From NCBI GenBank assembly GCA_030649345.1, contig JAUSKK010000018.1, positions 1 to 32,000 of the forward strand: a stretch of DNA of 32,000 nt, given 5' to 3'. A program made the translations under genes and the position numbers. This DNA comes from Candidatus Iainarchaeum sp. GTDB taxonomy: Archaea; Iainarchaeota; Iainarchaeia; Iainarchaeales; 0-14-0-20-34-12. The notes beneath the pieces are model-generated. The model was not told the origin of the DNA, ran no database searches, and saw nothing but the letters and a program-made list of their open reading frames with translations. Positions 2,884-30,783 of this stretch are shown one piece after another (position 1 is the first letter of the stretch; each line of letters begins with the position of its first letter).

Positions 2884-2936
2884 TTATATAGCTAAAGTTG
2901 GTACGTATTAAAAACACATTTATTGAGAATTCTGAA

Positions 2937-3917
2937 ATGGCATTTAAAAGGTATTTAATTCTTATAGGGCTTATCCTGTTTGCACTTATTTTAGGAAGTG
3001 TAAATTTAACCAGCGTTTTTTTTATATTGAAGGAAGCTAATTTTATTTTTTTATTATTTTCTTTTAGCATTCTTTTTTTTATGCTAACCATTAAAGCAAA
3101 AAAATGGCAGATTCTTTTGAATGTGTATGGCTCTTCACTTTCTTTGTTTTCTTGCTTAAAATTTTGGTGCATTGGATTTTTTTTAAGTATTTTAACTCCA
3201 GGCCGGGTGGGGGACTTTAGCAGGGCTGTGTATGTTCGAAACACAATTTCTTTGCCTACTGGTATTTTGACAGTTTTTGTAGATCGTGTAATGGATATTT
3301 TATTATTGCTTATTTGGTCTGCTTTGGCGGTGGTTTTATTTTCAGTACTGTTTGGCAAAACAATTGTTTCACTGGGCTTGCTTTTGTTTTTGCTGTTTTT
3401 GTTTATTTTCTTTCTCTGGTTTTTTTCAAACCCTGCGAATGTTAAAAAGGTATTTAAGCCTTTTTTTAATTTTTTTGTACCTGAAAATTTAAAAGAACAA
3501 ATTAAACTGAACTTTGGAACTTTTTTCCAGTCATTAGAAAAGTTAAAAATGCATAAGCGTCAATTGTTTTTTTCCTTTTGCTTAGGAGTCATTTCTTGGG
3601 TTGGGTCTATTGTATATTTTTATTTGATTGTACTTGCTTTGCATATTCCAGTTCCGTTTCATTTTGTTTTGGTTATAGTTCCTTTGATTGCTTTGAGTGA
3701 CTTGCTCCCTGTTTCTGTTTCTGGTTTGGGCACCCGTGAAGCTTTAATGATTTTTTTGTTTAGTTTTTATTCGCTTTCTCCGGAGCAAGCTATTGCAGTT
3801 TCTCTAACTTATTTGTTTATTGGCTATGTGTTTCCTGCTTTTTTGGGATTTATTTTTATGCTGCAAAATCCATTGGATTTGAAAAAACAGCTAAAGATTG
3901 AACCCATAAAGCTTTAA
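2937..3917 (+). CDS. UPF0104 / lysyl-phosphatidylglycerol-synthase-TM-like 'flippase-like' membrane protein
   Basis: Multi-pass hydrophobic protein with the family-typical LTPGRVGDFSRAVYV loop after TM3. I prefer the ATG at 2937 (MAFKRYLILIG) over the alternative start at 2898 in the ORF track. Confidence 0.75.
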   Translation: MAFKRYLILIGLILFALILGSVNLTSVFFILKEANFIFLLFSFSILFFMLTIKAKKWQILLNVYGSSLSLFSCLKFWCIGFFLSILTPGRVGDFSRAVYVRNTISLPTGILTVFVDRVMDILLLLIWSALAVVLFSVLFGKTIVSLGLLLFLLFLFIFFLWFFSNPANVKKVFKPFFNFFVPENLKEQIKLNFGTFFQSLEKLKMHKRQLFFSFCLGVISWVGSIVYFYLIVLALHIPVPFHFVLVIVPLIALSDLLPVSVSGLGTREALMIFLFSFYSLSPEQAIAVSLTYLFIGYVFPAFLGFIFMLQNPLDLKKQLKIEPIKL

Positions 3918-7212: not shown

Positions 7213-8301
7213 ATGGTGCATATACGTCGAAAGAAAGTCGGAATTTTCACTTGGGATTTTGAACCTATTGAGGGTGGAATGGGCGTGCAGGCTCTTGAAC
7301 TTTACAATGCACTCCTTCATGACAGTGAATTTGAGCCGGTAGTTTTCTCTCCAAGAAAAAACTCATTGCTGAATCATTTTCAGCTGCGTAAAATTTCATC
7401 AGGAAAAGTCGGACAACTTCTTTTTTCTTTTCAATGTGCCTTTCAGCTTGAAAGCTTAATTAAAAAACATTCATTGGACATTGTTCATTTTATAGGCAGC
7501 TCTGGAGGAGTTCAGCTTTTGAAGAAACCTTCTGTGCCGTGTGTGTTTACCTTGAACAATACTTACTTTTATCTTGCTAGAAAATTTAATTCTTCGATAT
7601 TTCGGTTCATGCGTTTTTTGGAAAAGATTTCACTTAAAAATGCAGACAAAAAAACAGCAATATCTGAAGGAATAGTTTCTGAAATAAATACTGTGCAAAA
7701 TGAAGACATATCGGTTGTGTATATGGGAATTGATGCAGAGATATTCAAGCCTTTGTCAATTAAACAAGAACGAATAATTCTTTATGTTGGCAGGCTGGTC
7801 GAAAGAAAAGGTGTGTTTGATTTATTGCATGCATTTGCAAAGCTCAAAAATAATGGATTCTCTCTTTTGTTTATTGGTGACGGGTCTGCAAAACAGGAGC
7901 TTATTCAAACTGCTCAAAATCTTAGTGTGGATAAAAATGTTAAGATTATTTCCAAGATTGACAGGGCACAGCTGCCGGAGTTTTATTCCAAAGCTGCATT
8001 GGTTGTCTTGCCTTCATGGAGTGAAGGTTTTGGGCTTACAATTGCCGAGGCAATGGCTTGCGGTGCCGTTGTTTTGGGCTCGGATATTGTTGGAATCCGT
8101 GACCAAATTAATGACTCTGAAAATGGTTTTCTTTTTGAGGTACAGAATCAGGCTGATCTTGCTGAAAAAATTGATCACATACTATTACTCGGATCTGTTG
8201 CTGAAAAAATACGGAAAGCAGCAATTGAAAAAGCTGCAATATTTTCATCTCAAAAAATGCTTGCTGATTATAAGAAGCTGTATACGGGGTTGTTGAGATG
8301 A
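7213..8301 (+). CDS. GT4 (GT-B fold, group 1) glycosyltransferase
   Basis: ILYVGRLVERKG plus SEGFGLTIAEAMACGAVVLGSD (the E-x7-E region typical of GT4). Confidence 0.85.
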   Translation: MVHIRRKKVGIFTWDFEPIEGGMGVQALELYNALLHDSEFEPVVFSPRKNSLLNHFQLRKISSGKVGQLLFSFQCAFQLESLIKKHSLDIVHFIGSSGGVQLLKKPSVPCVFTLNNTYFYLARKFNSSIFRFMRFLEKISLKNADKKTAISEGIVSEINTVQNEDISVVYMGIDAEIFKPLSIKQERIILYVGRLVERKGVFDLLHAFAKLKNNGFSLLFIGDGSAKQELIQTAQNLSVDKNVKIISKIDRAQLPEFYSKAALVVLPSWSEGFGLTIAEAMACGAVVLGSDIVGIRDQINDSENGFLFEVQNQADLAEKIDHILLLGSVAEKIRKAAIEKAAIFSSQKMLADYKKLYTGLLR

Positions 8302-9251
8302 GTATTTTATTCAAAAAATCTATTGCAAGTTTTATTGCAAACGTCCTTTTTGCATTAAAAATATCTCCTTTGCTTATGCGGCAAGGCAAAATGCAAACCT
8401 TTTTGTTATACCATAACCCTGATCCAATTGTATTTGAGAAACATATTTTGTTTTTGAAAAAACATTATGTAATTACTCCTGTTTCGGAAGCCTTGTCTTT
8501 GAATTCAGTTCCAAGTAAACCTGCAGTTTCCATTACTTTTGACGATGCTTATCGAAATAATTATTTGAATATTTTTCCTCTGCTGCAAAAACACAGCATA
8601 TCCGCAATGGTTTTTGTTCCGACAGGTTTTATTGGGTCAATTTTTTTGCCAGCGGCTTTAAAAGAAGCCTTTTTGAAAACAAAGAAAAAAAATATTATAC
8701 TTTCGGGTTATGGCAAACTTGTTTTGGGTACTCCTCAAAATGCTTTTGATGCTTGGCATAAGCTAATCTGGAATATTATTCAGTTGCCTTCTGCTGAAAG
8801 AGATTTGAAAATAAGGGAAATTCTTTACTTGCTGCAAGTGTCAGAAGATTCCTGTACATCGTCCAAAGTCATGAGTGCAGAAGAACTATCTTCTCTTAAA
8901 AAAGTGATTGAGATTGGCAATCATACTGTGACACACCCAGATATGCTTAATCTTTCTTTGGAGGAAACACGTTTTGAATTAGAAGTATCTAAAAAAGAAA
9001 TTGAAAAACTAACTGGACAGTCCTGCATGCACTTTGCTTATCCTTATGGAAAAAAAGAAAATTACTCTAAACAAACTGTACTGCAAGTTGAAAAAGCAGG
9101 GTTCAAGTTTGCATTTACTGCAATTCCCATTCAAAGTGCAAAACAGAAACCGTTTGAGCTTGCTCGTATAGGTATAGGTGACAAGGATTCTGTGGCGTTA
9201 TTGTGCCTGAAACTGACTCCAGTGTGGCCGATTTTTTGGAGATTTTCGTAA
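8298..9251 (+). CDS. Polysaccharide deacetylase (CE4 / NodB homology domain)
   Basis: SITFDDAYRNNY (TFDD motif) and GNHTVTHPDM (H-x-x-x-H motif). ATGA overlap with the upstream GT4 stop. Confidence 0.8.
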   Translation: MSILFKKSIASFIANVLFALKISPLLMRQGKMQTFLLYHNPDPIVFEKHILFLKKHYVITPVSEALSLNSVPSKPAVSITFDDAYRNNYLNIFPLLQKHSISAMVFVPTGFIGSIFLPAALKEAFLKTKKKNIILSGYGKLVLGTPQNAFDAWHKLIWNIIQLPSAERDLKIREILYLLQVSEDSCTSSKVMSAEELSSLKKVIEIGNHTVTHPDMLNLSLEETRFELEVSKKEIEKLTGQSCMHFAYPYGKKENYSKQTVLQVEKAGFKFAFTAIPIQSAKQKPFELARIGIGDKDSVALLCLKLTPVWPIFWRFS

Positions 9252-9834: not shown

Positions 9835-10524
9835 ATGAAGCAACAACTTAAAATTCAAGACACTTTTAGAAGATCTGATTCAGAAGATTCTATAGGTGCA
9901 ATTGAAGCAGCAATCTTGCTTAAACCATATCTTCCTGAAAATCAATCAGTTCTTGAAGTTGGCTGCGGGTACGGTTATTTCATAGACAAATTGTTTCAAA
10001 AACATAATCAAGTTACTGCGATTGACATTTCAGATAATGCGATAGCGCATTGCCAAAAATTTTTTTCAGGAAAAGCAAAATTTACCAAAACGGATATAAA
10101 TAATTTTAATTCAGATACCCTATTTGATTGTGCTCTTTTGGTAAATGTGTTGGATCAGATCCCGGATGATCTGGCAGCTCTTCGGAAAATAAATAGTCTC
10201 TTGTGTTCAGATGGAATTTTGCTTTTGGTCACACCCATTACTGAGAAAAGGTATATTCAAGCATCGATTCACAGGTACGCTGAAGAAAAGTTAATTGAAA
10301 AAGTGTCAGCAGCTGGTTTTCGGATTAAAAAAAAAGTAATTCAGGGCGGGGTGCTGAGTTTTTTTGCTGGTCGGCTGTCTAAAAGGATTTATTTTTCCAA
10401 GAAAATCTTGGCGCTTGTACGGAAGCTGCCTTTTTATCGTGCTATTGTCCGGCTTGATGCAAAAGTAGGATTAAAAAAAGACATTATTTTGCTTGTTTGT
10501 GAAAAAAAAGCCAAAACCCTATAA
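9835..10524 (+). CDS. Class I SAM-dependent methyltransferase
   Basis: VLEVGCGYGYF (motif I), AIDISDNAI, DCALLVNVLDQIPDD and DGILLLVTP. I prefer the ATG at 9835 over the TTG at 9826. Confidence 0.8.
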   Translation: MKQQLKIQDTFRRSDSEDSIGAIEAAILLKPYLPENQSVLEVGCGYGYFIDKLFQKHNQVTAIDISDNAIAHCQKFFSGKAKFTKTDINNFNSDTLFDCALLVNVLDQIPDDLAALRKINSLLCSDGILLLVTPITEKRYIQASIHRYAEEKLIEKVSAAGFRIKKKVIQGGVLSFFAGRLSKRIYFSKKILALVRKLPFYRAIVRLDAKVGLKKDIILLVCEKKAKTL

Positions 10525-11425
10525 TAATTACTGCCCAAGAATAATTCAAAGCTAAGGTCAGTAATTCGGTTGCAAGTGCTGTTTCTGGTTGAATAGAAAC
10601 TAGTAATGCAAGGTAAATATAGGTTGCTTCAACAATTCCTAAGCCGGAAAGGGTTACTGGTGCAAGTGCAACTATTGCAGCAATTGCAATTATGAATCCC
10701 ATGTACAGTGGATTAATGCTGTTGTTCAGTGCCAAAAAAAGTATTGATCCATTTATGGACATTACGATGAGTTTTAGAATGGTGATGGCTCCATTTTTTG
10801 CAAGTAAATTCTTATGGGCTGAAAAATAATCCATGAATGTATTGCGGAATTCCACAAAATGAGCTTCATTTTTTGTAATGAAATTTTTCACAAAACGTAT
10901 TTTTCCAACCAATGGAACTTGTGTAAGAGTTACCGTCCTAAAAAATATCAAAAAGATGCAGGCTCCAAAAAATAGTGCTGTGCAGAAAAAAAGAAGCGGT
11001 ATATTATTGAAGCCAAAAAACCAGAGAGTGCCAACTATGGACACAACTGAGAAAAGCACTAGAGTGATGAACTTATCCAGGAAAATCACTGCAACTGTTT
11101 TTGTGTAAGGCAAACCGTCTTTTTTCAGATAGTATGCTGTTGAGAATTCCCCTATTTTTCCAATGGATGTAAGTCCTGCGACCCATCCGAAACAATAATA
11201 CTTCAATAGTTTTCTGAAGCTGATGGATGGCCTATTTTCCATAAGGATCCATATATTTAATGCACTTAATGTGATTTGGATTGTAATCAATAGCATGGAG
11301 ATAAATAAAAAGAACGGATTTGCAGTTAAAACCAAAGAGATTGTTTTTTCGATGTTCACAAATTGGAGCAAAGTCCAAATTATAAGCAAGCTTAGAATTC
11401 CTTTTGCAAGCAATTTGTAGTTCAT
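10484..11425 (-). CDS. Second UPF0104 / LPG-synthase-TM-like 'flippase-like' membrane protein
   Basis: Multi-pass hydrophobic protein with GLTSIGKIGEFSTAYYLKK, equivalent to the PGRVGDFSRAVY loop of the 2937-3917 paralog. Its 3' end overlaps the convergent methyltransferase by 41 nt. Confidence 0.7.
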   Translation of the reverse strand: MNYKLLAKGILSLLIIWTLLQFVNIEKTISLVLTANPFFLFISMLLITIQITLSALNIWILMENRPSISFRKLLKYYCFGWVAGLTSIGKIGEFSTAYYLKKDGLPYTKTVAVIFLDKFITLVLFSVVSIVGTLWFFGFNNIPLLFFCTALFFGACIFLIFFRTVTLTQVPLVGKIRFVKNFITKNEAHFVEFRNTFMDYFSAHKNLLAKNGAITILKLIVMSINGSILFLALNNSINPLYMGFIIAIAAIVALAPVTLSGLGIVEATYIYLALLVSIQPETALATELLTLALNYSWAVIIIGFWLFFHKQAK

Positions 11426-11623: not shown

Positions 11624-14542
11624 ATGAATTTCAGTGCATTAAAAGAAATTTTTAAACAAAAATTGAAGTGGCCTGGGCTTATTGAATCAGGGCTGGTTTT
11701 CTTTGTTATTGTATGGGTCTTATTTTTTCTGCTGCAAGATAGTTTTATTTCCTTGTTTGCAAAATTCTTTGACCAGGCCAAACTTGAGTTTGTATTTTCA
11801 ATGACTTTCATTAATCTGCTGATTGTTATTTTTTTGTTTTTAATTATTTTGATTGTCAAACATAAACTAAACTGGCTTAGATTTGAACCGGAGACACGCA
11901 AGTTTGTTTTAATTTTGTTCTTGATTTTGTTTGCTTTTTTTGGTATTGTTTTCTATTCTGATTTTGCTTTTAAACTTCAGATAATAGAACGGAGTCAGGA
12001 TATCAAATGGCATACTTATTTGATGCTGCCGTTAAGTATGGAACATGATCTGTTGACAGTTTTAGAAAATAGTTTATCGGCTTCAGAACTCAGTAAGGTT
12101 CATTCAACATTGCCAGTTTATAATTTTTATATAAAAGATAAATATATTGCAGAATTAAATGCAGATCTTCCGTTTTCAGGAGCTAAAAATGTGAATGGCT
12201 TTTTTCAAGTAAATGACAACAATTATTTTGCAGCAGAATTCAGATATCGCGGGGATAATTATTATCATTGGGGCTCTGTAAACAAGTCTTGGCGTATTAA
12301 ACTAGAAAATCATCAGCTTTTAGATGGTGTAAATAAATTTAATCTAATTAACCCTAAGCATACAAGTCATATGATACTTCCCTTTACATCGTACATCCAA
12401 GAAGCCTTGGGTGTGCTGGGCGCGCGATCGTACTTGAGTGCACTGTACATTAACAATAATTATGCAGGAGTGTATGAATATGTTGATCAGCTGGATGAGT
12501 CATTTCTTCGCTTAAAAAATTTGCTCCCATGTGATATTTATTCAGGAGACAAACCAAGAGACGATCAGGAATGGATTACCCGTGAACAGCAAGGATGGCT
12601 TGTTTTTGATGATTCAGGTCGATGGGAACTGACCGCCACTTTTGACGGAGATGAAAATAGAGCAATGAAAAATATTGATTTTTTTCTTGAAAATGTAAAT
12701 ACTCAAGATGTCAACAGATTTTACGAATTTTTTCAGCAATATCTGGGTGAACCTTACTTGAATTTTTTGGCAGAAAAAACAATCATCAATGATTTTCATA
12801 CGGATGACCGGCATAATCACAAGTTTTATTTTGATCCATCTTCTGGGCAATTTATTCCAATTGCCTGGGATCAAGTTGTGGAAAAAATATCTAATGATTG
12901 GCCTGTGGATATGATGGCCAACCGGATTGACCGGCAAATTTTGCAATTTCCAGAACTTATATTTCGGAAGAACAAACTTATATTTGCGCATTTAAATTCT
13001 TTTACTCTGGCAAATGCATTGGATATTATTGATGGAATGGAACAAAATCTGGTTGAACCCATAAAGTCTGATATTTACAAGGATGTAATGAATTGGCCGT
13101 TAAGCAGGAACATTACTTTTGATGAATGGAAAATTGGTGTTAATGATCTTCGGGAAACAATAAAGTTCAACTATGAATATATCCGTAAAAAATTTGACGA
13201 AGTTGACTTGCAAGTTAGCTTGGTTAATTTAGGCAATAATTTAGGACAGCTTATTGTGGATGTAAATGGAGTAAGTGCAATTCGGATTAAAGATCCATCC
13301 GAAAATTGCCTGCAAGTTCGCCGTAGTTTTATTCCGGAAAGTGAAAAAATCTGTTTAGGGCAAGGTTCTGCCAGTGATCTGTTTTATTCCGGACGTAAGA
13401 TTTCAACTGAAAAAATTATTTTAAACAACCTAGAACGTGACGTAAATGCCATTGGGGTTGTGCCTATGCGGTATGTGTTTGATATTGATTATAAAACTGC
13501 AAAAAGTCAAGTACAGAATCTCAAGTTTTACAATGCCATTACAGATGCCGAGGTGTTTCCGAATTTTGATTTGACAGGTACTGCACAAGAATCTGCGCAA
13601 TATCTTGTATCTGGATTTTCCAAACATCCATGGTTATATGATGATTTTTCAGAGAAAACAGTGGTTTGGACTGGTGAAGTTGTTGTGGAAACAAAACAAG
13701 TGTTCAAAAAAAATGAAGTGCTGAAAATTCAACCAGGCACAAAGATATTGTTGAAAAATGGTGCAGCCATTGTTTCTTTTGGTAAAATAATTGCTTTAGG
13801 AACTCCTGAAGCACCCATTGTGTTTAATGCATTGGATGAAAATTCAGTATGGGGTGCTGTAGCTCTTCAAGGAATGAATTCAAGTTTAGACTTCAACTGG
13901 GTTCATATGTCTGGTGGAAGCGGTATAAGTCATAACTCAGTTAACTATACTGGAATGTTGTCAGTTTACAATGGTTCTGCTCAAATTACCAACAGTTATT
14001 TTGCTGACAACAAAATTACTGATGATATGTTTAATGCGAAAAATGCTGTTATTTCTATAAAAGATTCTGAGTTCAGAAATGCCTTAAGTGATGCTATTGA
14101 TTTGGATATTTCTGACGGTGAAATTATTCGAGTGACTGTCAGCAATACAGGCGGTGATGCAATTGATTTGATGACTAGTTCAGTTCACATTGACGGTGTG
14201 TCTATTATGAATGCTGGAGACAAAGGAATTTCCATTGGAGAAAAAAGCAATCCTATTATTCAAAATACGCTTATTCAAGATTCAAATACTGGCATTGCAA
14301 TTAAGGACAGATCTAATCCCAAAATATCCTCTCTTAGTTTGCGTTCGAATAATAGTGCTATTGCTGCTTATCCGAAAAACTGGCGGTATGGCGGAGGCGG
14401 GCTAGGCGAAATATCTGACAGTGACTTTTGCGAAAATAAATCTGTGTTGTTTATAGAGCCGGATTCTCAGATAATATTTTTAAAGAATGACACCCGAATA
14501 GTATGTATGGACTCTAACTGCAATATTGGGTGTGGTTTATGA
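11624..14542 (+). CDS. Membrane-anchored CotH-family kinase-like protein fused to a right-handed parallel beta-helix domain
   Basis: Three N-terminal hydrophobic segments (aa 19-37, 56-78, 94-111). CotH-like core with NKFNLINPKHTSHM, LYINNNYAGVYEYVDQLDESFL and DDRHNHKFYFDPSSGQFIPIAWDQ. C-terminal PbH1-like repeats (SDAIDL, GGDAIDL, GDKGISIGEKSNP, NTGIAIKDRSNP) and a Cys-rich tail. Confidence 0.8.
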   Translation: MNFSALKEIFKQKLKWPGLIESGLVFFVIVWVLFFLLQDSFISLFAKFFDQAKLEFVFSMTFINLLIVIFLFLIILIVKHKLNWLRFEPETRKFVLILFLILFAFFGIVFYSDFAFKLQIIERSQDIKWHTYLMLPLSMEHDLLTVLENSLSASELSKVHSTLPVYNFYIKDKYIAELNADLPFSGAKNVNGFFQVNDNNYFAAEFRYRGDNYYHWGSVNKSWRIKLENHQLLDGVNKFNLINPKHTSHMILPFTSYIQEALGVLGARSYLSALYINNNYAGVYEYVDQLDESFLRLKNLLPCDIYSGDKPRDDQEWITREQQGWLVFDDSGRWELTATFDGDENRAMKNIDFFLENVNTQDVNRFYEFFQQYLGEPYLNFLAEKTIINDFHTDDRHNHKFYFDPSSGQFIPIAWDQVVEKISNDWPVDMMANRIDRQILQFPELIFRKNKLIFAHLNSFTLANALDIIDGMEQNLVEPIKSDIYKDVMNWPLSRNITFDEWKIGVNDLRETIKFNYEYIRKKFDEVDLQVSLVNLGNNLGQLIVDVNGVSAIRIKDPSENCLQVRRSFIPESEKICLGQGSASDLFYSGRKISTEKIILNNLERDVNAIGVVPMRYVFDIDYKTAKSQVQNLKFYNAITDAEVFPNFDLTGTAQESAQYLVSGFSKHPWLYDDFSEKTVVWTGEVVVETKQVFKKNEVLKIQPGTKILLKNGAAIVSFGKIIALGTPEAPIVFNALDENSVWGAVALQGMNSSLDFNWVHMSGGSGISHNSVNYTGMLSVYNGSAQITNSYFADNKITDDMFNAKNAVISIKDSEFRNALSDAIDLDISDGEIIRVTVSNTGGDAIDLMTSSVHIDGVSIMNAGDKGISIGEKSNPIIQNTLIQDSNTGIAIKDRSNPKISSLSLRSNNSAIAAYPKNWRYGGGGLGEISDSDFCENKSVLFIEPDSQIIFLKNDTRIVCMDSNCNIGCGL

Positions 14543-15267
14543 CTTATACTGACCGTTTAGAAAAAAAATTCTTAATTGATTATGCGTTATATTCCAAAAT
14601 TCTTGCATTTATTGAGCCTTTCATAGAACCAGATCGCTTTGTTGGGGAACAAGGCACTTATCTGGTAAATAGTCTTTATTTTGACACAGTGGATGACAAA
14701 TTTTATTGGGAAAAACTGGATGGTGAACGAGTACGGAAAAAAGTAAGGATTCGTTCTTATCATGACACAAAAACTCTTAAACCTACGCAGACTATTCTTG
14801 AAATTAAAAAAAAGGTTGACTCAAATGTATTTAAAGAAAAAATTTCCATGCCTTTTGACGATGCCTTTAATTTGATAAAGAATCCGCATACTCAGTCCAT
14901 TGCAGCAAAAGTTTCTGCTAAAGAAAAACAAGCAATTGATGACGTACTTTACTTGAATTATAAATATGATATTCGCCCAAGAGTAATGGTCAGTTATGAG
15001 CGAAAGGCTTTTCATGATAAGTATAATTCAAGTACTCGGATAACCTTTGACTTTAATATTAAATACCGCACTGCAGATTTGGAAATCGAAAGCATTGACA
15101 TGGAAAACTATGTGCTTGCACCAAATTTGATAGTTATGGAATTAAAATACAAAAAATTTGTGCCTATTTGGGCTGTATGGATGATTCGAAAATTTAATCT
15201 TTCTCTGACTACTATTTCAAAATATTGTATGGCTGTAAACAAACTTAAGCACCCAGCGGATTTTTGA
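14539..15267 (+). CDS. Stand-alone VTC domain protein (polyphosphate polymerase-like triphosphate tunnel / CYTH-like fold)
   Basis: RLEKKF, YLVNSLYFDT, KVRIRSY, ILEIKKK, VMVSYERKAF, TRITFD, VMELKY and terminal ISKY fit the bacterial VTC-domain pattern. The ATG at 14539 overlaps the CotH TGA (ATGA), so I prefer it over the GTG at 14530. Confidence 0.75.
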   Translation: MTYTDRLEKKFLIDYALYSKILAFIEPFIEPDRFVGEQGTYLVNSLYFDTVDDKFYWEKLDGERVRKKVRIRSYHDTKTLKPTQTILEIKKKVDSNVFKEKISMPFDDAFNLIKNPHTQSIAAKVSAKEKQAIDDVLYLNYKYDIRPRVMVSYERKAFHDKYNSSTRITFDFNIKYRTADLEIESIDMENYVLAPNLIVMELKYKKFVPIWAVWMIRKFNLSLTTISKYCMAVNKLKHPADF

Positions 15268-15427
15268 ATAATTCAAAAGGAATTTTTGGCATTTACGATT
15301 GATTCGCTCAGATTTTTTCTCTGGTAACTAAAAGTGATGTTGTAAAAAATATGCTTTTTTGGTATGAATCAGCGCGTTATTGGAAGGCTTACGTAAGTTT
15401 ATTAATCTTTTGTAGGTAATTTTGGTT

Positions 15428-16117
15428 ATGGCATGGTTTGAGGATCCGATTTCCATTTTTGGATTAACCGATAATGTTTTTACCACTCTGGATATTTTAG
15501 TTGTTTTGGTTTTGACAACCCTGCTGGCCTTAATTGTTGCAAAAACATATCAGCTTACTCATGAAAATGTTTCCTATTCCAAAAGCTTTGTTCAGATCAT
15601 GGTTGTATTTGGTGTTGTGGTCTCTGTTATTATGCTCATTATTGGCAGTAATATTGCAAGGGCATTCACTTTAGTGGGTGCACTTTCCATTGTCCGCTTT
15701 AGAAATGCAATAAAAGAAACAAGGGACGTTGGTTTTATTTTTTTTATGATGGCTGTAGGCATGGCTGTTGGAACAAGATTTTATACATTGGCTGTTATTA
15801 TGACTGTATTCATATCTCTGCTTATCATTGCACTGCAGAAAATGAATTTTGGAAGCTCGATGAAGAATGAGGAAGTACTTAAAGTAGTGATTGCGGCAAA
15901 TTTTTCAGTTGAAGACAAACTTTCAGCGATTTTTTCCACGTATCTATTGAATCACCAGTTTATCAGTACTGAATCTACTGGGAAAAAGGACCTGAATCAA
16001 GTTGTTTTTCTTGTGAAACTTAAAGATAAAAAGAAAAGAAGTGAATTTATTGAAAAAATTCGGGCTATAACAGAACAATCTGTTTACCTTACGGAAACAG
16101 ACTATATGGTGTACTGA
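15428..16117 (+). CDS. DUF4956-family multi-pass membrane protein with a soluble C-terminal domain
   Basis: At least four hydrophobic segments and the family-typical LVGALSIVRFRNAIKETRDVGFIFFMMAVGMAVG block. I prefer the ATG at 15428 over the TTG at 15422. Confidence 0.7.
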   Translation: MAWFEDPISIFGLTDNVFTTLDILVVLVLTTLLALIVAKTYQLTHENVSYSKSFVQIMVVFGVVVSVIMLIIGSNIARAFTLVGALSIVRFRNAIKETRDVGFIFFMMAVGMAVGTRFYTLAVIMTVFISLLIIALQKMNFGSSMKNEEVLKVVIAANFSVEDKLSAIFSTYLLNHQFISTESTGKKDLNQVVFLVKLKDKKKRSEFIEKIRAITEQSVYLTETDYMVY

Positions 16118-16229: not shown

Positions 16230-17165
16230 TCAGCTTACTTTAATGGTAATCCAGTAATAAAAAAAATAGAAAGGGAATAACAGATCCCGTATAACTGTTG
16301 TAAAGTTGAAAATTAAAAATTCCTGAATTGAAAACCTTTTGCCCTGCATACTTATAATAAACCGAAAAATAAAAAGTAATATAATCGCAGTAAAAACTCC
16401 AATTATAAAATTTAAAATTAATGCATATGTTATTAAAAATAAAATAGTCCAGGAAAAAAATGATTGTTTCCAAGAACTTTTGCAAAGAAAACCTAAATAG
16501 TGCGAATACAATTTTGGGAATTTTTTATACAAACGTACATCTCCTTTGATCAAAATTATCTCATTCAAAATATTTTTCCACGAAATTTTTCTGGGAGGAT
16601 GATAAACAATTACTGAAGGATCAAATAAAATTTTTCCATTGGCTGAAATTATTTTAAATGCCAGATCCGTATCTTCGCGAAAGAAATGATAGGATTCATC
16701 GAAGCCGTGGATTTTTTCTAGCCATTCTTTTTTTACGGCAAAATTGCATGCTGGAAATTTTCTACCGGTTAAATTCTCCGTTGCATGAAAAAACAATTTC
16801 TGATTGTCTTGGGTTGTCTTTCCTTCAATGCCGGCTATATCTGGATTTTGATTAAATGCGTGAACTAAGTTAGTTAGCCAGTCTTTTTGAGGAATGCAAT
16901 CATCATCTGTAAAAGCAACTATGTTTGTATTGGCGTTTTTCCAGCCAACATTTCTTTTTTGATCCGGCCAAGGTGAATCTATTTCAAAATATTTAATTTG
17001 AGAAGAATTTAGATCTTGAATTACTTTTTTTGTAGTATTTTTATAATAACCAACTACGATGATTTCATACTCTTGTTTTGGAAAATTCTGGTTCAAGAGA
17101 GCCTGCAATGTTTCTTTTAATAAAGTATCCCGATTGTGTGCTGGAATAACAACACTAATTTTCAT
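16230..17165 (-). CDS. GT2 glycosyltransferase with a C-terminal membrane tail
   Basis: ISVVIPAHNRDTLLKETLQALLNQNFPKQEYEIIVV and FTDDDCIPQKDWL, followed by hydrophobic C-terminal segments. The start overlaps the upstream GT-C-like gene by 11 nt. Confidence 0.85.
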   Translation of the reverse strand: MKISVVIPAHNRDTLLKETLQALLNQNFPKQEYEIIVVGYYKNTTKKVIQDLNSSQIKYFEIDSPWPDQKRNVGWKNANTNIVAFTDDDCIPQKDWLTNLVHAFNQNPDIAGIEGKTTQDNQKLFFHATENLTGRKFPACNFAVKKEWLEKIHGFDESYHFFREDTDLAFKIISANGKILFDPSVIVYHPPRKISWKNILNEIILIKGDVRLYKKFPKLYSHYLGFLCKSSWKQSFFSWTILFLITYALILNFIIGVFTAIILLFIFRFIISMQGKRFSIQEFLIFNFTTVIRDLLFPFYFFYYWITIKVS

Positions 17166-18654
17166 CTTGAAAACCTTCCTTAAACCGATAAATTTTCAGT
17201 GAATGTGGATTTTTAGTTTCATAAACTAAAGATAATTCAGAAGAATGTATTTCAATGAACTCCTTAAGCTTACTGCGTTCATGATCAATTACTGTTTGAC
17301 GAGTTGATGTATTTTTGGAAAGATTTGAATACGTTAAATCTAGGACATATAATTGTCTGCCTTGGGCGTATTCTAAAATATTAAAATCAGAATACGTTGT
17401 GCCTAAATCTGATTTGGGTACAACGTTAAAATATCCTTGATTTCCTAAAAAGTTTTTTAAAAAATAACTGCAGTCATCACTGCTTCCAATTACCCAGGCA
17501 GAATCTGGAATAACTGACTGGATTTGGTTCAATACTGTTTTACGCGAGTCCAAAAAGCGGTCATGAATAAATGAAGCATAAATTATGCCTAAAAAAAGTA
17601 CAAGTAAGACCAGCAAAAAAATTGGTTTTTCCCATTTTATTAAACGAAGTTTTTCCAATAGTTTTGGAAAAAAACCAGCATATGCAATCAGTAAAATTGC
17701 AATCAAGGGAACCAAATAACGTAGGCGGGCTGTAAAAATTGTTTCCAATGAAAAATCAAATGCAACGAATTCAGTAAACATTGCATTGAAGGCAAAATAA
17801 GAAATAGTCAATAAAAAGAATTCGATTTTTAATTCAAATTGTTTTTGCAAATAAGGTGACAAAATCAGCAAAGGAAATACTGCCAAAAGCAGTAGAAAAT
17901 AAATTGGTAAATCAAATAAGAAGTTTGAAATTGAAAAATAGGAAGAAACTTTTGCCAATGTTGTCTCACTTCGGCTTGAAACTTCACCCAAAAGTGCGTT
18001 GTTAAATACAAAAAATAAGATAACTGCAATAAGTCCTCCAATGGCAAAAGGAATTATTTTTTTGTCTTTTTTTAATAAAAGTGCTGCGCAAAAAACGCCC
18101 CAAAATTGAATGGCGTCTTCGCGGATGAAAACAGCCAAACCAAACAAAAAACCGCTAAATAAAGCAAAGAAAAAGCGTTCGCGGGAAAGATAAAAATACA
18201 AGCCGGTCAAAGCTAAGGTGGCCACAAAAAGTTCGGCATTTAAAGTTCTGGATTCCCAAACTAAAGTTGGAAATAAAAGATAAAATATTGAGTATATTGA
18301 ATTAAAGTTTAACTTTTTTAGAATCTGGAAAAAAATGAAAAAATTCAGCAAGTGAATAATTAGCCCATAAAAAAATACCGTACTAAGTCCTCCTCCAATA
18401 AATGGAATCAACGGAAAAGAACGCCCTACTGGATAAACTGAAACAAAGCCTTGCGAAGTTAAAACACTTCGGCAGGCAAAAAAAGGTTCATCTTCCAATA
18501 CACTTATTTGGCCTTGACTCAATAACATTGCATTTCGAAGAGATGCATTTTCATCAATTGAGCCATAAAAAGAAGGAAAAAAGAAAAGATAGATCAAAGA
18601 ATAAACAACAATTGCAAAAATTAAAGTTTTGTTTCCAAAAAGATGCATATACAT
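17155..18654 (-). CDS. GT-C-like polytopic membrane protein (PMT_2/ArnT-like candidate)
   Basis: 499 aa with many TM segments. An acidic DE pair sits in the first predicted external loop (FYGSIDENASLRNA), as in GT-C enzymes. C-terminal soluble domain of roughly 130 aa. Confidence 0.6.
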   Translation of the reverse strand: MYMHLFGNKTLIFAIVVYSLIYLFFFPSFYGSIDENASLRNAMLLSQGQISVLEDEPFFACRSVLTSQGFVSVYPVGRSFPLIPFIGGGLSTVFFYGLIIHLLNFFIFFQILKKLNFNSIYSIFYLLFPTLVWESRTLNAELFVATLALTGLYFYLSRERFFFALFSGFLFGLAVFIREDAIQFWGVFCAALLLKKDKKIIPFAIGGLIAVILFFVFNNALLGEVSSRSETTLAKVSSYFSISNFLFDLPIYFLLLLAVFPLLILSPYLQKQFELKIEFFLLTISYFAFNAMFTEFVAFDFSLETIFTARLRYLVPLIAILLIAYAGFFPKLLEKLRLIKWEKPIFLLVLLVLFLGIIYASFIHDRFLDSRKTVLNQIQSVIPDSAWVIGSSDDCSYFLKNFLGNQGYFNVVPKSDLGTTYSDFNILEYAQGRQLYVLDLTYSNLSKNTSTRQTVIDHERSKLKEFIEIHSSELSLVYETKNPHSLKIYRFKEGFQDEN

Positions 18655-22286: not shown

Positions 22287-22418
22287 TTAATTCACCTTTT
22301 CAGCTAAAATAATCATTTCTTCCGAACCGCGGGGCAAACCAAGGTTTTCCCCCCAGTTTGAGGTTCGTCCTAACCCCCTTTCCTGTTTTAAAGGATTTAT
22401 TTTATTTACAGTTTTCAT
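22287..22418 (-). CDS. Hypothetical 43-aa micro-ORF (MKTVNKINPLKQERGLGRTSNWGENLGLPRGSEEMIILAEKVN); it may instead be a recombination scar
   Basis: Hand-translated and below the ORF-track cutoff. Its ATG overlaps the methyltransferase TGA (ATGA at 22418-22415), and its TAA abuts the TTG start of the next gene. The last 10 residues before the final Asn duplicate the methyltransferase C-terminus. Confidence 0.25.
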   Translation of the reverse strand: MKTVNKINPLKQERGLGRTSNWGENLGLPRGSEEMIILAEKVN

Positions 22419-22453
22419 TCTTTGACCTTTTCAGCTAAAATAATCATTTCTTC
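22294..22453. repeat. Perfect 29-nt direct repeat (ACCTTTTCAGCTAAAATAATCATTTCTTC) at 22294-22322 and 22425-22453, flanking a 102-nt GC-rich insert
   Basis: Read directly from the sequence. The copies are 131 nt apart, and one copy forms the 3' end of the 22415-22999 CDS. Confidence 0.95.
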
Positions 22454-22999
22454 TTGCAACGAATTGGGAAGAAAATGATGCATAATTTTCCGAATGGGAA
22501 ACAGCCATTTTTTTTGTGAACCATCGCAGCTTTCTTCAGTGTAAGGCTGGCAGTAAAATTTTTGAATTTTTAATCCGTGTTTTTGCAATAATTCTGTAAG
22601 TTCTTGTTTTGTGAATAACGTAAAATGCAAAGGGGCGTGATAGGATTTAAACATTCGGTTAATTAAGCTGTTGCGGTTGGGTGTAGTGATTATTATTTGT
22701 CCATTTTGTTTCAGAATTCGAGAACATTCTTTTACAAAATTTTCAGGAATATGCAAATGTTCTATTACTTCTCCGGCAACAATGCAGTCAAAAAAATTAT
22801 TTTCAAAAGGAATGTGTTTTTCTGCATCGGCAATTTTGTAGTGTTCATTTTCTTGTTCTTTTTTTAATTCAGTGTCAATTCCATATAACTCTTTTTCTTC
22901 AATTTTGGCGCGAATGCTTTCATTTAATGTTCCAGACAAACAACCTACGTCTAATACTTTGCCTTGGATTGTACTTAAAATAAATTGAACTCGATTCAT
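22415..22999 (-). CDS. Class I SAM-dependent methyltransferase
   Basis: VLDVGCLSGTL (motif I), YGIDT, DCIVAGEVIEHL and LKQNGQIIITTPN. Confidence 0.8.
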   Translation of the reverse strand: MNRVQFILSTIQGKVLDVGCLSGTLNESIRAKIEEKELYGIDTELKKEQENEHYKIADAEKHIPFENNFFDCIVAGEVIEHLHIPENFVKECSRILKQNGQIIITTPNRNSLINRMFKSYHAPLHFTLFTKQELTELLQKHGLKIQKFYCQPYTEESCDGSQKKWLFPIRKIMHHFLPNSLQEEMIILAEKVKE

Positions 23000-23036
23000 A
23001 GTATTACTTTGCCATAAAATAGAAATAAAAACCTAG

Positions 23037-24557
23037 TTATTGTGCTTGGGTTGTACAGCAAGCATCTGTGCCAGCAACTATTTTTTCTTCTGGTAATTTG
23101 GTTCCTTGCAGTAAATATTTGAAGAATACTTTGGCAGACAATGCCAAGCGGGGAATTTCTTTGGGGTGCAATAAACCTTGCTTTATTTTGCTGGCTACAA
23201 AACTGGGTCTTAAATAAAATTCTTTTCTGGCTTGATCGCATAATTCAACCAGTTCTTTGTTGCTTAAACCAGGTCTGGACACAATGGTATTGTGTTGTCC
23301 TTCAGGTGTTAACCATTCATCAAATTTGTGAGTAGTCATATATCCAGCTTCACTAAATTGCCGAAATGCTTCTGTGCCCGGATAAACCATGATGGGAAAA
23401 AATTGTGCTGTGTCTGGATCAATTTCTTTGGCAAACTGAATGGTTTCTTTGATAGTTTCTTTGGTTTCTCCATAATTGCCTAACATAAAACAGCCATGGA
23501 CTAAAATTCCGGTTTGTTTGATGTCTTTCATGAATTTTCGAATTCCTTGGACTGTGGTTCCTTTTTTGACATTGTTTAAAATTTGCTGATTTCCAGATTC
23601 TACTCCAACACATACTTCGCGAGCTCCAGCTTTTTTCATTATTTTCAAAGTATCCAAATCTACGTCTGCGCGTGCATTGGAAGTAAATGTAACATCTAAA
23701 TCTCGGTCAATAATTTCTTGACAAATGTCTCTAGTTCTTTTGCGGTCAGCAGTAAAAGTATCATCTTCTAACATAATGTCTTTTACGTAAGGTAAGTTTT
23801 CTGAAATCCATTGAAATTCGTCTACTACATTTTGTACACTGCGCGCCCTATACTCGTGTCCGTTCATGACTTGAGGAATAAAACAAAAAGTACATCTAAA
23901 CGGACAACCTCTTCCTGTAACCACTGTAATTTCCGGCCATAAAACAGATGGATAAAAATAATCTTTAATATTCAAAAATTTGGCATATACTTGACTGACA
24001 AAAGGAAATTCTTCGTCCAATTCTTTTCCAGTAATTTCTCTTCGAGGCGCATTGTGCACAATTTTGTTTTGTTTTCTGTCTCGGAAAGTTAATCCATTGA
24101 CTTGCTTTAAATCTTTTCCTTGTTCGATAACTTCTGCCAATTCTCGGATGGTGAAATCATATTCTGCTCTGGCAACGGAATCAATTTGTTCACTGATTTG
24201 CATGGTTTGATCTGGGGTTGCAGTAACATGAGATCCTACCAGCGTAGTAAAGCAATCTGGAAATTCTTTTTTAATTTCTTCCAAGACATGGACATCATTG
24301 TATATACTGGCTGTACTGGTATCAATGACTGCAAGTTCTGGCTTGAATTTTTTTACAATTTCCATGGTTTGTTCTAAATTTTGAGAAGCTGCGGGTGCAT
24401 CGTGCAATAAACAAGTATGGCCTGCGTTCATTACTGCGCCCGTAGTATATCCTAAATAAATTGGATAATAAACACAGCCGCCTTTGCTGACTGCAGGACT
24501 TCTGGATTGTCGTGTGTATCGATTTAAAAACGGTGGATTTAATGTTAAAACTCTCAT
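23037..24557 (-). CDS. Cobalamin-binding-domain radical SAM enzyme (class B rSAM; HpnJ/BchE/Fom3-like architecture)
   Basis: N-terminal LNPPF...YYPIYLGY...LLHDAP region followed by a Rossmann-like segment, as in B12-rSAM proteins. The VVTGRGCPFRCTFCFIP CX3CX2C cluster is encoded at 23883-23906 (minus strand). Confidence 0.8.
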   Translation of the reverse strand: MRVLTLNPPFLNRYTRQSRSPAVSKGGCVYYPIYLGYTTGAVMNAGHTCLLHDAPAASQNLEQTMEIVKKFKPELAVIDTSTASIYNDVHVLEEIKKEFPDCFTTLVGSHVTATPDQTMQISEQIDSVARAEYDFTIRELAEVIEQGKDLKQVNGLTFRDRKQNKIVHNAPRREITGKELDEEFPFVSQVYAKFLNIKDYFYPSVLWPEITVVTGRGCPFRCTFCFIPQVMNGHEYRARSVQNVVDEFQWISENLPYVKDIMLEDDTFTADRKRTRDICQEIIDRDLDVTFTSNARADVDLDTLKIMKKAGAREVCVGVESGNQQILNNVKKGTTVQGIRKFMKDIKQTGILVHGCFMLGNYGETKETIKETIQFAKEIDPDTAQFFPIMVYPGTEAFRQFSEAGYMTTHKFDEWLTPEGQHNTIVSRPGLSNKELVELCDQARKEFYLRPSFVASKIKQGLLHPKEIPRLALSAKVFFKYLLQGTKLPEEKIVAGTDACCTTQAQ

Positions 24558-29523: not shown

Positions 29524-30783
29524 CTATTCCATTATGCGGACTTTGGGAATGGGAATAATATATTTTCCATTTTTTTGAGTGAATTTTGTTTTTTCGCCTA
29601 TTTTTTTAATTATTTCAGCAGAGAAATTCCAGGGAAAAATAACAATATAATTTGGGCTGTATTTATCAATGGCATCAAAACTATAAATAGGTATATTTGT
29701 CCCAGCGTACAGTAGTCCTTGTTTTTCGGGTGTTTCATCTACAATAAATTGTATTTGATTTTGGGTCATACCGCAATAGTTTAGGAGTGTATTTCCTTTT
29801 GCTGCTGCGCCAAATCCTGCAATTAATTTGCCTTCGGCTTTCAACTTTTTCAATACCGTGACAAAATCTTCCCTTATTTGTTTGACATTGTTTTTGAATT
29901 GCAGATACGTTTCCAAATCATACATTTTGTTTTGTGTTTCCCATTCTAGTAATTCAGTTACCGATGGATCTGTTTGAAATTCGCTTTGACTGTGGGCTGC
30001 ATATAAACGGAGTGCTCCGCCGTGGATTGGAACTAGTTTTACTTTAAAAATTCGCAAGCCATATTTTTCAAAAAGTAACATTAATGGTTTCAGCAAAAAA
30101 TAGGATACGTGTTCATGATAGATTGTGTCAAATGCGTTTTCCATAATTAAACTGCCCATGTAGTGAAATTCAATAACTGTAATTCCCTTGGGGGCCAGCG
30201 ATTTTTTTATTGCTGCAACAAATCCTTTTACATCATGCGTGTGGGCAAACACATTGGTGGCTGTAATAATTTCCGGTTGTTCTTTTTGCATAACTTGTTC
30301 TGCAGTTTGATTGTCCCAAAATGCGCATATTGTGGGAAGTCCAAGTTCATTGGCTTTTTTTGCTAGATTTTCAGCAGGGTCAACTCCAAGTACTTTAAAT
30401 CCTTGGTCTTTGAATTCTTTTAAAAGACATCCATCATTGCTTGCAATATCTAGTGTCAATGTATTTTTTGGTTCAGGAAAGTATGTTTTGAGTTCTTGTC
30501 CTAGTTTGGCACAGTGTTCACGAAATGTTGCTGAAATTGAAGACTTGTACAAATAATGTGAAAATAGAAATTCTGGATCCACCACTACACTTAACTGAGA
30601 AAGACTGCAATTATTGCAATAAAGAACTGTCAATGGAAATCGGGGGCAAAAATCAGTTTCATTTTTCAGAAAACGATTGGCTAAAGGTAGATTGCCTAAT
30701 TCCAAATATGCTGTAAGGTTGGTGGAATCACAAATACGGCAGACTGTAAGTGGTTTATACAATTCTGTGATTGGTTGGTTCAT
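29524..30783 (-). CDS. NDP-hexose C-methyltransferase-like enzyme (Zn-ribbon + class I MT + C-methyltransferase C-terminal domain; TylC3-like)
   Basis: The N-terminal four-Cys arrangement (CRIC ... CNNC), LPLANRF, LDIASNDGCLL (motif I-like) and a length of 419 aa fit the Methyltransf_13/14 architecture. Confidence 0.7.
   Translation of the reverse strand: MNQPITELYKPLTVCRICDSTNLTAYLELGNLPLANRFLKNETDFCPRFPLTVLYCNNCSLSQLSVVVDPEFLFSHYLYKSSISATFREHCAKLGQELKTYFPEPKNTLTLDIASNDGCLLKEFKDQGFKVLGVDPAENLAKKANELGLPTICAFWDNQTAEQVMQKEQPEIITATNVFAHTHDVKGFVAAIKKSLAPKGITVIEFHYMGSLIMENAFDTIYHEHVSYFLLKPLMLLFEKYGLRIFKVKLVPIHGGALRLYAAHSQSEFQTDPSVTELLEWETQNKMYDLETYLQFKNNVKQIREDFVTVLKKLKAEGKLIAGFGAAAKGNTLLNYCGMTQNQIQFIVDETPEKQGLLYAGTNIPIYSFDAIDKYSPNYIVIFPWNFSAEIIKKIGEKTKFTQKNGKYIIPIPKVRIME

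Follow-up and report, generated by a model that had tools for sequence, protein, structure and literature searches.

In current accounts, polyphosphate (polyP) is polymerized by VTC in eukaryotes and by PPK in prokaryotes. This report concerns a VTC gene in an archaeal setting. In a stretch of 32,000 nucleotides from a Candidatus Iainarchaeum sp. (assembly GCA_030649345.1, contig JAUSKK010000018.1, positions 1 to 32,000 of the forward strand; hereafter the window), positions 11624-16117 hold genes for a CotH-family protein, a VTC protein and a DUF4956 membrane protein, which the open reading frame (ORF) list places in tandem, all on the + strand, and whose host is a DPANN archaeon (Candidatus Diapherotrites) with a single membrane. 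We propose that VTC and DUF4956 form a polyP synthase-exporter that feeds an outward-facing, glycan-binding enzyme of the CotH fold; for this whole chain we estimate a probability of about 0.45, and its synthase-exporter part, taken alone, we regard as probable. The synthase-exporter reading rests on the near-obligate pairing of VTC with DUF4956, on HlyD/TolC-like partners in diderm bacteria and on a fusion of CotH, a transmembrane (TM) span and VTC; it rests further on the invariance of nine catalytic residues of yeast Vtc4 and on the export signals carried by 61 of 63 linked CotH proteins. The triad itself is real and partly known, and the polyP mechanism drawn from its sequences is plausible.

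The eukaryotic VTC complex (yeast Vtc4/Vtc3/Vtc1; PDB accession codes 7ytj and 8i6v) has a tunnel domain homologous to the archaeal VTC protein, with the nine catalytic residues in common, and both systems pair a cytoplasmic catalytic domain with an obligate membrane partner, an arrangement that fits coupled synthesis and translocation. Whereas the eukaryotic complex contains an SPX domain and DUF202 subunits with three TM segments, the triad has a separate VTC protein of 242 amino acids (aa) and the unrelated DUF4956 protein; given the absence of an SPX domain and a DUF202 channel and the different membrane partner, the triad is not of the eukaryotic VTC complex type. The eukaryotic complex delivers its product to the vacuole, whereas the target of the triad would be the cell exterior, with CotH as a third, extracytoplasmic partner. 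The module may be seen as a prokaryotic counterpart of this coupling of polyP synthesis to translocation, directed to the cell exterior and supplemented with an extracytoplasmic partner.

The same three families lie contiguous with an exopolysaccharide locus in the accessory module of Gram-positive Pel loci. Genes for CotH, a polyP polymerase and DUF4956 adjoin Pel loci in streptococci, clostridia and bifidobacteria (Whitfield 2020); in S. intermedius they are SIR_1594-1592, where secretion is predicted for CotH and where DUF4956 is given an MgtC-like TM region plus an ACT domain (Whitfield 2020, mBio 2025). The authors of the Pel-locus studies reported that they did not find synteny of the triad outside Pel loci, where it is widespread according to the survey below, and Whitfield et al. 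proposed that Pel synthesis is regulated via protein phosphorylation. The window differs from these loci in being of DPANN origin and in harboring a Wzx-like, GT2/GT4- and epimerase-rich locus that lacks Pel-specific genes: the PelD, PelE and PelG families were not found in a Pfam scan of its 32 ORFs of at least 100 aa, which did return glycosyltransferase family 4 (GT4) and a deacetylase, the flippase being Wzx-like. The Pel-locus CotH carries FN3 domains, whereas the CotH protein of the window has a 3-TM anchor and a beta-helix, and the window has no DUF4832 hydrolase. The triad neighborhood is thus already known through the description of the Pel accessory genes in 2020 and their genetics in 2025; what is new is the archaeal, non-Pel context, the breadth across bacteria and archaea, and the evidence for an exporter.

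An earlier interpretation of the stretch, made from its letters alone (the sequence-only reading), had noted three consecutive plus-strand genes for proteins of 972, 242 and 229 aa with an ATGA overlap between the first two and had assigned them to CotH, VTC and DUF4956. The ORFs agree in every respect, with the third gene starting at 15428, and all three assignments lie above the curated cut-offs of Pfam. Its statement that no experimentally defined function was known for the triad is outdated, since a Pel accessory module with first genetics has been described (2020, 2025).

Linkage of VTC and DUF4956 across genomes

Linkage was measured on the best 80 of at least 567 VTC-anchored loci with a relative, one genome being taken per GTDB species, and on a set of DUF4956-anchored metagenome loci. 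Partners were detected with hidden Markov models built from the alignments of this analysis, and loci were called well-flanked if 5 kb or more lay on each side. A DUF4956 gene is present at 77 of the 80 VTC-anchored genome loci and a cotH gene at 62; among the well-flanked ones the counts are 49/49 and 38/49, respectively. Seen from the other side, the well-flanked DUF4956-anchored metagenome loci contain VTC in 12 of 12 cases and CotH in 10 of 12. Every DUF4956 and VTC partner lies on the same strand, and among the well-flanked genome loci a single CotH gene has the opposite orientation. VTC and DUF4956 genes are separated by a median of 15 bp; bacterial pairs are tight, in contrast to the spacers of 110-200 bp in three DPANN loci. 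The linkage of the triad is far above chance: the pairing of VTC and DUF4956 is near-obligate from either side, and CotH often joins them as a third gene (~78-83% of well-flanked loci). The recurrence as neighbors that the sequence-only reading had stated is hereby measured.

Among the 80 loci, the bacterial carriers belong to the Bacillota, Planctomycetota, Myxococcota, Gammaproteobacteria, Acidobacteriota, Bacteroidota, Ignavibacteria, Spirochaetota, Fibrobacterota, Bdellovibrionota, Chloroflexota, KSB1 and the Candidate Phyla Radiation (CPR), and the archaeal carriers to the Nanoarchaeota, Methanosarcinales and Asgard archaea. The order CotH-VTC-DUF4956, with a long CotH protein, is that of archaea, Planctomycetota, Gammaproteobacteria and CPR bacteria; VTC-DUF4956-CotH, with a CotH protein of ~490 aa, is typical for the Bacillota, and DUF4956-VTC-CotH occurs in Acidobacteriota and Cytophagia. 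In related DPANN contigs, the epimerase-CotH-VTC-DUF4956 block has stayed together, whereas the order of the glycan genes around it has changed. The CotH-VTC-DUF4956 order is also found in three Asgard loci (L002, L003, L006), the last of which stems from the cultured Promethearchaeum syntrophicum MK-D1 (chromosome 3541235-3561939). Apparent VTC/DUF4956 fusions in two high-GC loci (L012, L029) were rejected, as the overlaps lie in different reading frames.

In 40 of 81 loci, a gene for a glycosyltransferase of family 2 (GT2) lies no more than 10 kb away, and the common theme of the loci is a surface or matrix polysaccharide, often a deacetylated one. In about 30-34 loci of Bacillota, the triad opens a conserved operon with the order VTC-DUF4956-CotH-~720-aa protein-HEAT-repeat protein-processive GT2-GGDEF/EAL, accompanied in some loci by an SLH-deacetylase. 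The gene table of C. perfringens NELoc-2 shows the same layout, its DUF4956 genes being annotated there as 'tubulin/FtsZ GTPase'. Examples of the operon are L053:9953-20666, L041 and L076; the ~720-aa protein has no Pfam match, and the GT2 enzyme is chitin-synthase-like.

In 14 loci from diderm bacteria (L035, L042, L055, L060, L065, L073, L012, L029, L020, L051, L058, L070, L135, L158), a HlyD-like adaptor of ~385-900 aa is encoded in one operon with DUF4956 and VTC, mostly without CotH, and four of them (L035, L042, L055, L060) possess a TolC/OEP-like protein as well. Typical gene orders are DUF4956-HlyD-like-OEP-like-VTC or VTC-DUF4956-HlyD-like; L035 and L042 have, next after VTC, a separate gene for an LTD-repeat protein. 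Adaptor and outer-membrane genes of this kind, which are not present in the window, its host having a single membrane, are shared with the HlyBD-TolC and MacAB-TolC exporters; such tripartite exporters use an ABC, RND or MFS engine, a part that would fall here to a polymerase together with an MgtC-like protein. By analogy, the diderm layout would represent a tripartite envelope exporter with DUF4956 as its sole inner-membrane candidate.

A protein from a metagenome (P0331; L165:2438-4809) consists of a signal-like N-terminus, a CotH domain, one hydrophobic span (SFWVLIIILGMVITPLILIVIYG), a K/R-rich segment and a VTC domain. Judged from its sequence, this fusion would have one membrane helix between its CotH and VTC parts, which would face different sides of the membrane; as the only such case, and with a scaffold gap interrupting its CotH part, it carries limited weight. 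A short ORF downstream of P0331 resembles the start of a DUF4956 gene and is broken near the contig end.

The VTC protein

The VTC gene (14539-15267, + strand), whose ATG overlaps the stop codon of the cotH gene (ATGA, 14539-14542), encodes a stand-alone triphosphate-tunnel protein of 242 aa. It matches the Pfam family VTC (PF09359) over the full length of the model (positions 2-234 of 235) at E 2e-40, scoring 139.3 bits where the cut-off is 23, has no second Pfam domain and contains no TM segment according to its hydropathy. A single-sequence search of the protein against solved structures, like that of DUF4956, returned no match; a profile of 42 VTC homologues matches only Vtc chains among solved structures, with Vtc4 (3g3q) at E 1.2e-21. 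Mutagenesis has shown that polyP synthesis by Vtc4 needs K200, R264, R266, K281, Y359, R361, E426, S457 and K458, the last of which is lost from the inactive paralogues Vtc2 and Vtc3. The corresponding residues of the archaeal protein (K10, R70, R72, K90, Y153, R155, E201, S227, K228) are invariant in the 42 homologues, and the prokaryotic family shares with Vtc4 an Arg at the first position of the ExExK motif (R6 = R196). By every sequence test, the prokaryotic protein is a VTC-family member, and the lack of TM segments together with the complete set of Vtc4 catalytic residues agrees with the cytoplasmic VTC enzyme that had been postulated from the letters alone.

The VTC family comprises 18,206 representatives (50% identity, E <= 1e-3, not split by domain of life). 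Neither an SPX domain nor a DUF202 channel was found by Pfam in the VTC protein of the window, and the best 150 family members are nearly all stand-alone proteins of 225-265 aa. Five VTC proteins (P0323, P0391, P0393, P0395, P0339) possess N-terminal extensions of 80-300 aa that are rich in Pro, Arg, Lys and Glu and of low complexity, with no TM segments and no Pfam domains.

The Glu at the second position of the RxExK motif, E8, is invariant in the prokaryotic VTC proteins, whereas yeast Vtc4 has Thr198 there. This residue restores half of the ExExK motif absent from yeast Vtc4 and recalls that of hydrolases, and the tunnel residues are equally typical of triphosphate-tunnel hydrolases. VTC could hence be such a hydrolase or another nucleotide- or triphosphate-processing enzyme, in which case the VTC-DUF4956 pair would have nothing to do with polyP export and might instead handle, for example, phosphate or cations at the membrane. 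Triphosphatases belong to the superfamily, whose members use several triphosphorylated substrates (PMC9582702), and the missing SPX domain and DUF202 channel would fit this explanation as well. Set against it are the derived Arg that the family has in common with Vtc4, the presence of an equivalent of the Vtc4-specific Lys458 and the fact that the best solved relatives are Vtc4 chains only; moreover, an obligate membrane partner along with periplasmic adaptor and outer-membrane genes would be superfluous for a soluble hydrolase. We consider a hydrolase the most improbable of the explanations discussed here.

The DUF4956 membrane protein

The third gene (15428-16117, + strand) encodes a protein of 229 aa for which Pfam, alignment and an AlphaFold2 (AF2) model indicate five predicted helices and a C-terminal ACT-like domain. 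Its ORF is open from 15422; the start was assigned to the ATG at 15428 because homologues begin with MAWF or MTWF at this point and because a TTTATTAA box is conserved upstream. The match to PF16316 (E 8.3e-14) scores 52.1 bits against a cut-off of 30.6, and several TM segments are evident from hydropathy. With 45-72% identity to thousands of DUF4956 proteins, it is the best-conserved member of the triad: identity between archaeon and bacteria amounts to 45-55%, compared with ~30% for VTC and CotH. Its invariant core (aa 69-119, MLIIGSNIARAFTLVGALSIIRFRNAIKETRDVGFIFF.MAIGMAVGTRFY) includes R78, R90, R92, N93, K96 and D100.

The AF2 monomer is of moderate confidence (predicted local distance difference test, pLDDT, 71.7) and shows five helices followed by a beta-alpha-beta-beta-alpha-beta domain. 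This C-terminal domain has weak matches to ACT-type folds, the C-terminal domain of MgtC (2lqj) among them, and the membrane part of the model has no match to solved folds in the fold search. The MgtC family of Pfam (PF02308) matches the protein below threshold, with 15.5 bits (E 0.023) where 31.4 are required, as it does, weakly, all 43 aligned DUF4956 members (best 1.3e-5). The charge distribution suggests an N-terminus outside and a C-terminus inside the cell; with this predicted topology, the RFRNAIKETRD loop and the ACT-like domain would come to lie on the cytoplasmic face, the same side as VTC. Like DUF4956, the MgtC/SapB/YhiD proteins combine a polytopic N-terminal domain with a cytoplasmic ACT-like domain. 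MgtC is known as a regulator that binds other membrane proteins and not as a channel, whereas DUF4956 has an invariant basic motif of its own and an obligate VTC partner.

The VTC-DUF4956 gap measures 160 bp in the window and contains the TTTATTAA box, a candidate archaeal TATA box, at 15398-15405 (+ strand), ~22-25 nt before the ATG. The box is found at the same distance from the ATG in three DPANN loci (the window, L082 and L083), between which the remainder of the 110-200 bp spacer is not conserved. This pattern suggests an internal archaeal promoter giving rise to a leaderless-type DUF4956 mRNA. A scan of the window for bacterial sigma-70 promoters and terminators gave counts equal to those of shuffled sequences, the host being an archaeon.

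The CotH protein

The first gene of the triad (11624-14542, + strand) encodes a protein of 972 aa in which the ORF, Pfam and the AF2 model delineate a 3-TM N-terminal anchor, a kinase-fold domain, a beta-sandwich and a right-handed beta-helix. Both Pfam matches lie above the curated cut-offs: CotH at aa 207-519 (PF08757; E 3.6e-11; 43.6 bits against 23.8) and Beta_helix at aa 807-919 (E 8.3e-10). The profile alignment to the Bacillus CotH structure 5jd9 reaches E 1.4e-24, and the AF2 model (pLDDT 82.9; predicted template-modeling score 0.79) retrieves B. cereus CotH (5jda) in Foldseek with E 6e-17 and a TM-score of 0.82 on the target. Hydropathy and charge place three TM helices at aa 19-37, 60-78 and 94-112 (11678-11959, + strand), and the AF2 model has helices at aa 17-45, 51-86 and 89-125. 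The bias of Lys and Arg residues predicts that the N-terminus lies inside the cell and that the catalytic part is exposed to the outside, in line with the external exposure that the sequence-only reading had assigned to CotH.

At its C-terminal end, the right-handed beta-helix domain (aa ~678-961; 13655-14506, + strand; Pfam Beta_helix, Foldseek) matches PL6 alginate lyases, GH87, the K1 capsule lyase, AlgE4 and the P22 tailspike (E 3e-5 to 1e-2). In the model, this domain resembles polysaccharide lyases, C5-epimerases and phage tailspike depolymerases.

The kinase-fold domain (aa ~161-524; 12104-13195, + strand) was delimited with the profile alignment to 5jd9 and an hmmalign motif table. Its motifs are RYRG (207-210), K221-S222, D291-E292, the loop H392-T-D394-D-R-H-N398, and W415-D416. 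The activity of B. subtilis CotH requires D228 and D251; D416 is the equivalent of the metal-binding Asp251, and His392 occupies the position of the canonical catalytic Asp228 (hmmalign). Another Asp, D394, lies two residues past His392, so that the loop reads H-x-D-x-x-H-N in the 12 closest homologues, in which His392 is conserved in 10/12, Asp394 in 11/12 and Asn398 in 12/12, and in which RYRG, K221-S222, D291-E292 and W415-D416 are invariant. The active site of the window subfamily is clearly under strong purifying selection, yet non-canonical. The protein is a member of the CotH family by its fold and its Pfam match, while a strict definition by the catalytic Asp leaves it outside; His392 weakens the sequence-only reading in this respect. 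Fold, Pfam family, N-lobe motifs, loop Asn and metal-binding Asp (D251 = D416) are shared with Bacillus CotH (5jd9/5jda), which, however, is made in the mother-cell cytoplasm and uses the catalytic Asp228, whereas the archaeal protein is extracytoplasmic, membrane-anchored and fused to a beta-helix, with His392 in place of that Asp. No gene for a Ser-rich substrate of the CotB/CotG type was noticed near the triad, although no search was aimed at such genes.

The 63 CotH proteins that neighbor VTC and DUF4956 in the surveyed loci all pass the Pfam threshold for CotH. Their motif columns were taken from hmmalign with B. cereus CotH as reference, a MAFFT alignment being too gappy. An N-terminal signal or anchor is present in 61 of the 63, and their additional domains are of extracellular types (LTD, beta-helix, Fn3_assoc, PKD, dockerin, type IX secretion sorting tail). 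The D251 equivalent is Asp in 58/63; at the D228 position, 50/63 carry Asp and nine proteins of the window's subclass carry His. The second catalytic Asp (D251) is absent from five (L001, L022, L031, L010 and one paralogue of L070). CotH proteins of the Bacillota type retain both catalytic Asp residues and have Ser in place of the catalytic-loop Asn (34/63). The CotH protein of the Zetaproteobacteria stalk cluster was considered and set aside as an unrelated SH3-CotH protein.

These data also bear on the idea that polyP itself is the exported product, a polyanion for the cell surface or the matrix. It might, for instance, hold together by ionic bonds the cationic, partly de-N-acetylated glycan that the neighboring GT4 and deacetylase genes produce; CotH with its beta-helix would then be a glycan-bound scaffold, a polyP tether, a pseudokinase or an independent enzyme. 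Several linked CotH proteins have lost one catalytic Asp, the catalytic loop of the window protein is non-canonical, and in the ~20% of VTC-DUF4956 pairs without CotH, HlyD/TolC-like proteins take its place as partners; deacetylases accompany the triad in DPANN loci, in Pel loci and, as SLH-deacetylase, in some Bacillota. The strong purifying selection on RYRG, K-S, DE, HxDxxHN and WD in the window subfamily and the retention of the Asp251 equivalent in 58 of 63 linked CotH proteins would, however, be unexpected for a mere scaffold, and the notion of ionic cross-linking draws on general chemistry only. We regard polyP as the end product as unlikely.

Proposed mechanism and the evidence against it

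In the mechanism that we favor, the synthase-exporter feeding CotH, the soluble VTC protein would polymerize polyP from cytoplasmic ATP in the manner of the Vtc4 tunnel domain, as its sequence suggests. Comparative genomics points to an oligomer of the MgtC-like DUF4956 protein as the route by which the polyP chain would leave the cell; its invariant basic TM3-loop-TM4 motif and cytoplasmic ACT-like domain may form the site of entry and docking. In the third and weakest step, the beta-helix of CotH would bind the glycan of the locus, with polyP acting as the phosphoryl donor or as the transferred group, and a surface glycan or an envelope protein would become anionic. A link to glycans is favored by the lyase- and epimerase-like beta-helix, by the position of the triad in glycan loci of DPANN relatives, next to a processive GT2 synthase in Bacillota and next to Pel loci in streptococci, and by the shifts in Pel level and aggregation that follow deletion of CotH or DUF4956 in S. 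intermedius. Topology, residue conservation and gene linkage are the observations to which these putative enzymatic steps are anchored. That CotH uses polyP at all has, in our estimation, about one chance in four.

A dedicated donor supply is attractive because there is no ATP source outside the cell. The secretory-pathway kinases Fam20C, Fam20B (a xylose kinase) and POMK are kinase-fold enzymes that likewise work outside the cytosol, in some cases with glycans as substrates, but they use ATP imported into the Golgi/ER lumen. In its most specific form, the proposal is a trans-membrane phosphoryl relay, in which polyP made by VTC passes through DUF4956 and then becomes the donor for an extracytoplasmic CotH that acts on a surface glycan; the archaeal CotH subclass may employ in this relay the His found in place of the catalytic Asp, and may phosphorylate the glycan or attach polyP to it. 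We consider this form doubtful.

Several observations weigh against the reading of the module as a polyP synthase-exporter that feeds CotH, and the deletion genetics of S. intermedius is the strongest of them. Deletion of VTC caused no aggregation phenotype (mBio 2025); deletion of DUF4956 raised Pel and lowered aggregation, while that of CotH lowered both (mBio 2025), so that the DUF4956 and CotH deletions move the Pel level in opposite directions. The DUF4956 protein does not resemble the eukaryotic VTC channel, no pore is visible in its monomer model, and its MgtC relatives are known as regulators (of ATP synthase and PhoR). The literature covered here contains no characterized prokaryotic VTC-domain protein and no polyP exporter. 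About 20% of the VTC-DUF4956 pairs have no CotH nearby. To these are added features described above, namely E8 and the hydrolase-typical tunnel residues of VTC, His392 of the window CotH and the loss of the second catalytic Asp from five linked CotH proteins. We know of no kinase-fold enzyme that takes polyP as its donor.

The same genetics lends itself to a different explanation, in which the module regulates the production of the glycan or exopolysaccharide: DUF4956 would sense a metabolite or the energy state, VTC would make or consume a phosphate-rich signal, and CotH would phosphorylate a biosynthetic protein. The opposite shifts in Pel amount after deletion of DUF4956 and CotH, the suggestion of Whitfield et al. 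that Pel is regulated by protein phosphorylation, the regulatory action of MgtC relatives on ATP synthase and PhoR, the role of ACT domains, whose fold DUF4956 approaches, as ligand sensors and the GGDEF/EAL genes that close the Bacillota operons would all fit such a role. In 61 of 63 cases, however, CotH is outside, across the membrane from the cytoplasmic glycosyltransferases and nucleotide-sugar enzymes; transport rather than signaling is suggested by the HlyD/TolC-like context and by the CotH-TM-VTC fusion, and the beta-helix and other carbohydrate-type domains favor a glycan over a protein as partner. We judge a regulatory module to be quite unlikely.

Compared with the membrane-coupled phosphoryl-delivery system that the sequence-only reading had put forward, our proposal retains synthesis and export, the latter being favored by the comparative evidence. 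The conduit role given there to DUF4956 gains from the pairing, the HlyD/TolC-like context and the fusion and loses from the MgtC likeness, the lack of any resemblance to the eukaryotic channel and the absence of a pore from the model. The delivery to CotH fares less well: the VTC deletion of S. intermedius, unlike those of CotH and DUF4956, is without aggregation phenotype, and the putative use of polyP by CotH is unsupported by any result here.

Should the pair be a synthase-exporter, this would show how polyP reaches the prokaryotic cell surface and how a kinase-fold enzyme outside the membrane can obtain phosphoryl groups, and it would explain a conserved accessory module of pathogen biofilm loci (S. 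intermedius Pel, C. perfringens NELoc-2). If the phosphoryl relay is true, CotH would be the first polyP-driven kinase-fold enzyme and VTC-DUF4956 the first dedicated prokaryotic polyP exporter, and the occurrence of the module in archaea of the Asgard and DPANN groups would be relevant to how the eukaryotic VTC complex arose, a question for which carriage by Promethearchaeum syntrophicum provides a prokaryotic reference point. Since cultured and genetically tractable carriers exist, the idea is directly testable.

The surrounding glycan locus

According to the Pfam scan, the triad is flanked by four GT2 and three GT4 glycosyltransferases, a nucleotidyltransferase, a deacetylase, methyltransferases and a B12/radical-SAM enzyme. 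The window further contains at least eight genes for sugar epimerases, dehydratases or reductases of the short-chain dehydrogenase/reductase fold, two of which are cut by the window ends, and it encodes a Wzx-like (Polysacc_synt) flippase and two LPG_synthase_TM proteins. The description of the surroundings as a pure glycosyltransferase and nucleotide-sugar locus was fair, if slightly simplified in view of the flippase, the LPG_synthase_TM proteins, the B12/radical-SAM enzyme and the methyltransferases.

No Rfam match was obtained in the window, and there is no NCBIfam model for its CotH, VTC or DUF4956 protein. The PADLOC models gave zero matches for these three proteins, and an anti-phage defense system was ruled out on this basis and on that of the consistent glycan context.

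The GT4 glycosyltransferase and polysaccharide deacetylase pair (7213-9251, + strand) also stands beside the triad in L082, L083 and L084. The LPG_synthase_TM protein encoded divergently from CotH (10484-11425, - strand) belongs to a flippase-like membrane family that is also present in related DPANN loci; it and its counterpart at 2898-3917 (+ strand) are polytopic, MprF-flippase-like and situated near GT2 and epimerase genes. Given their recurrence, these proteins may be lipid-linked glycan flippases. Two ORFs on the - strand (559-2151 and 17155-18654) have no Pfam match and contain 11 and 7 TM-like segments, respectively, which makes them candidate glycan polymerase, ligase or oligosaccharyltransferase-like proteins. 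A B12-binding radical-SAM enzyme is encoded beside a methyltransferase at 22415-24557 (- strand), and a C-methyltransferase (Methyltransf_13/14) lies beside dTDP-sugar genes at 29524-30783 (- strand); together, these genes suggest unusual C-methylated deoxysugars in the archaeal glycan.

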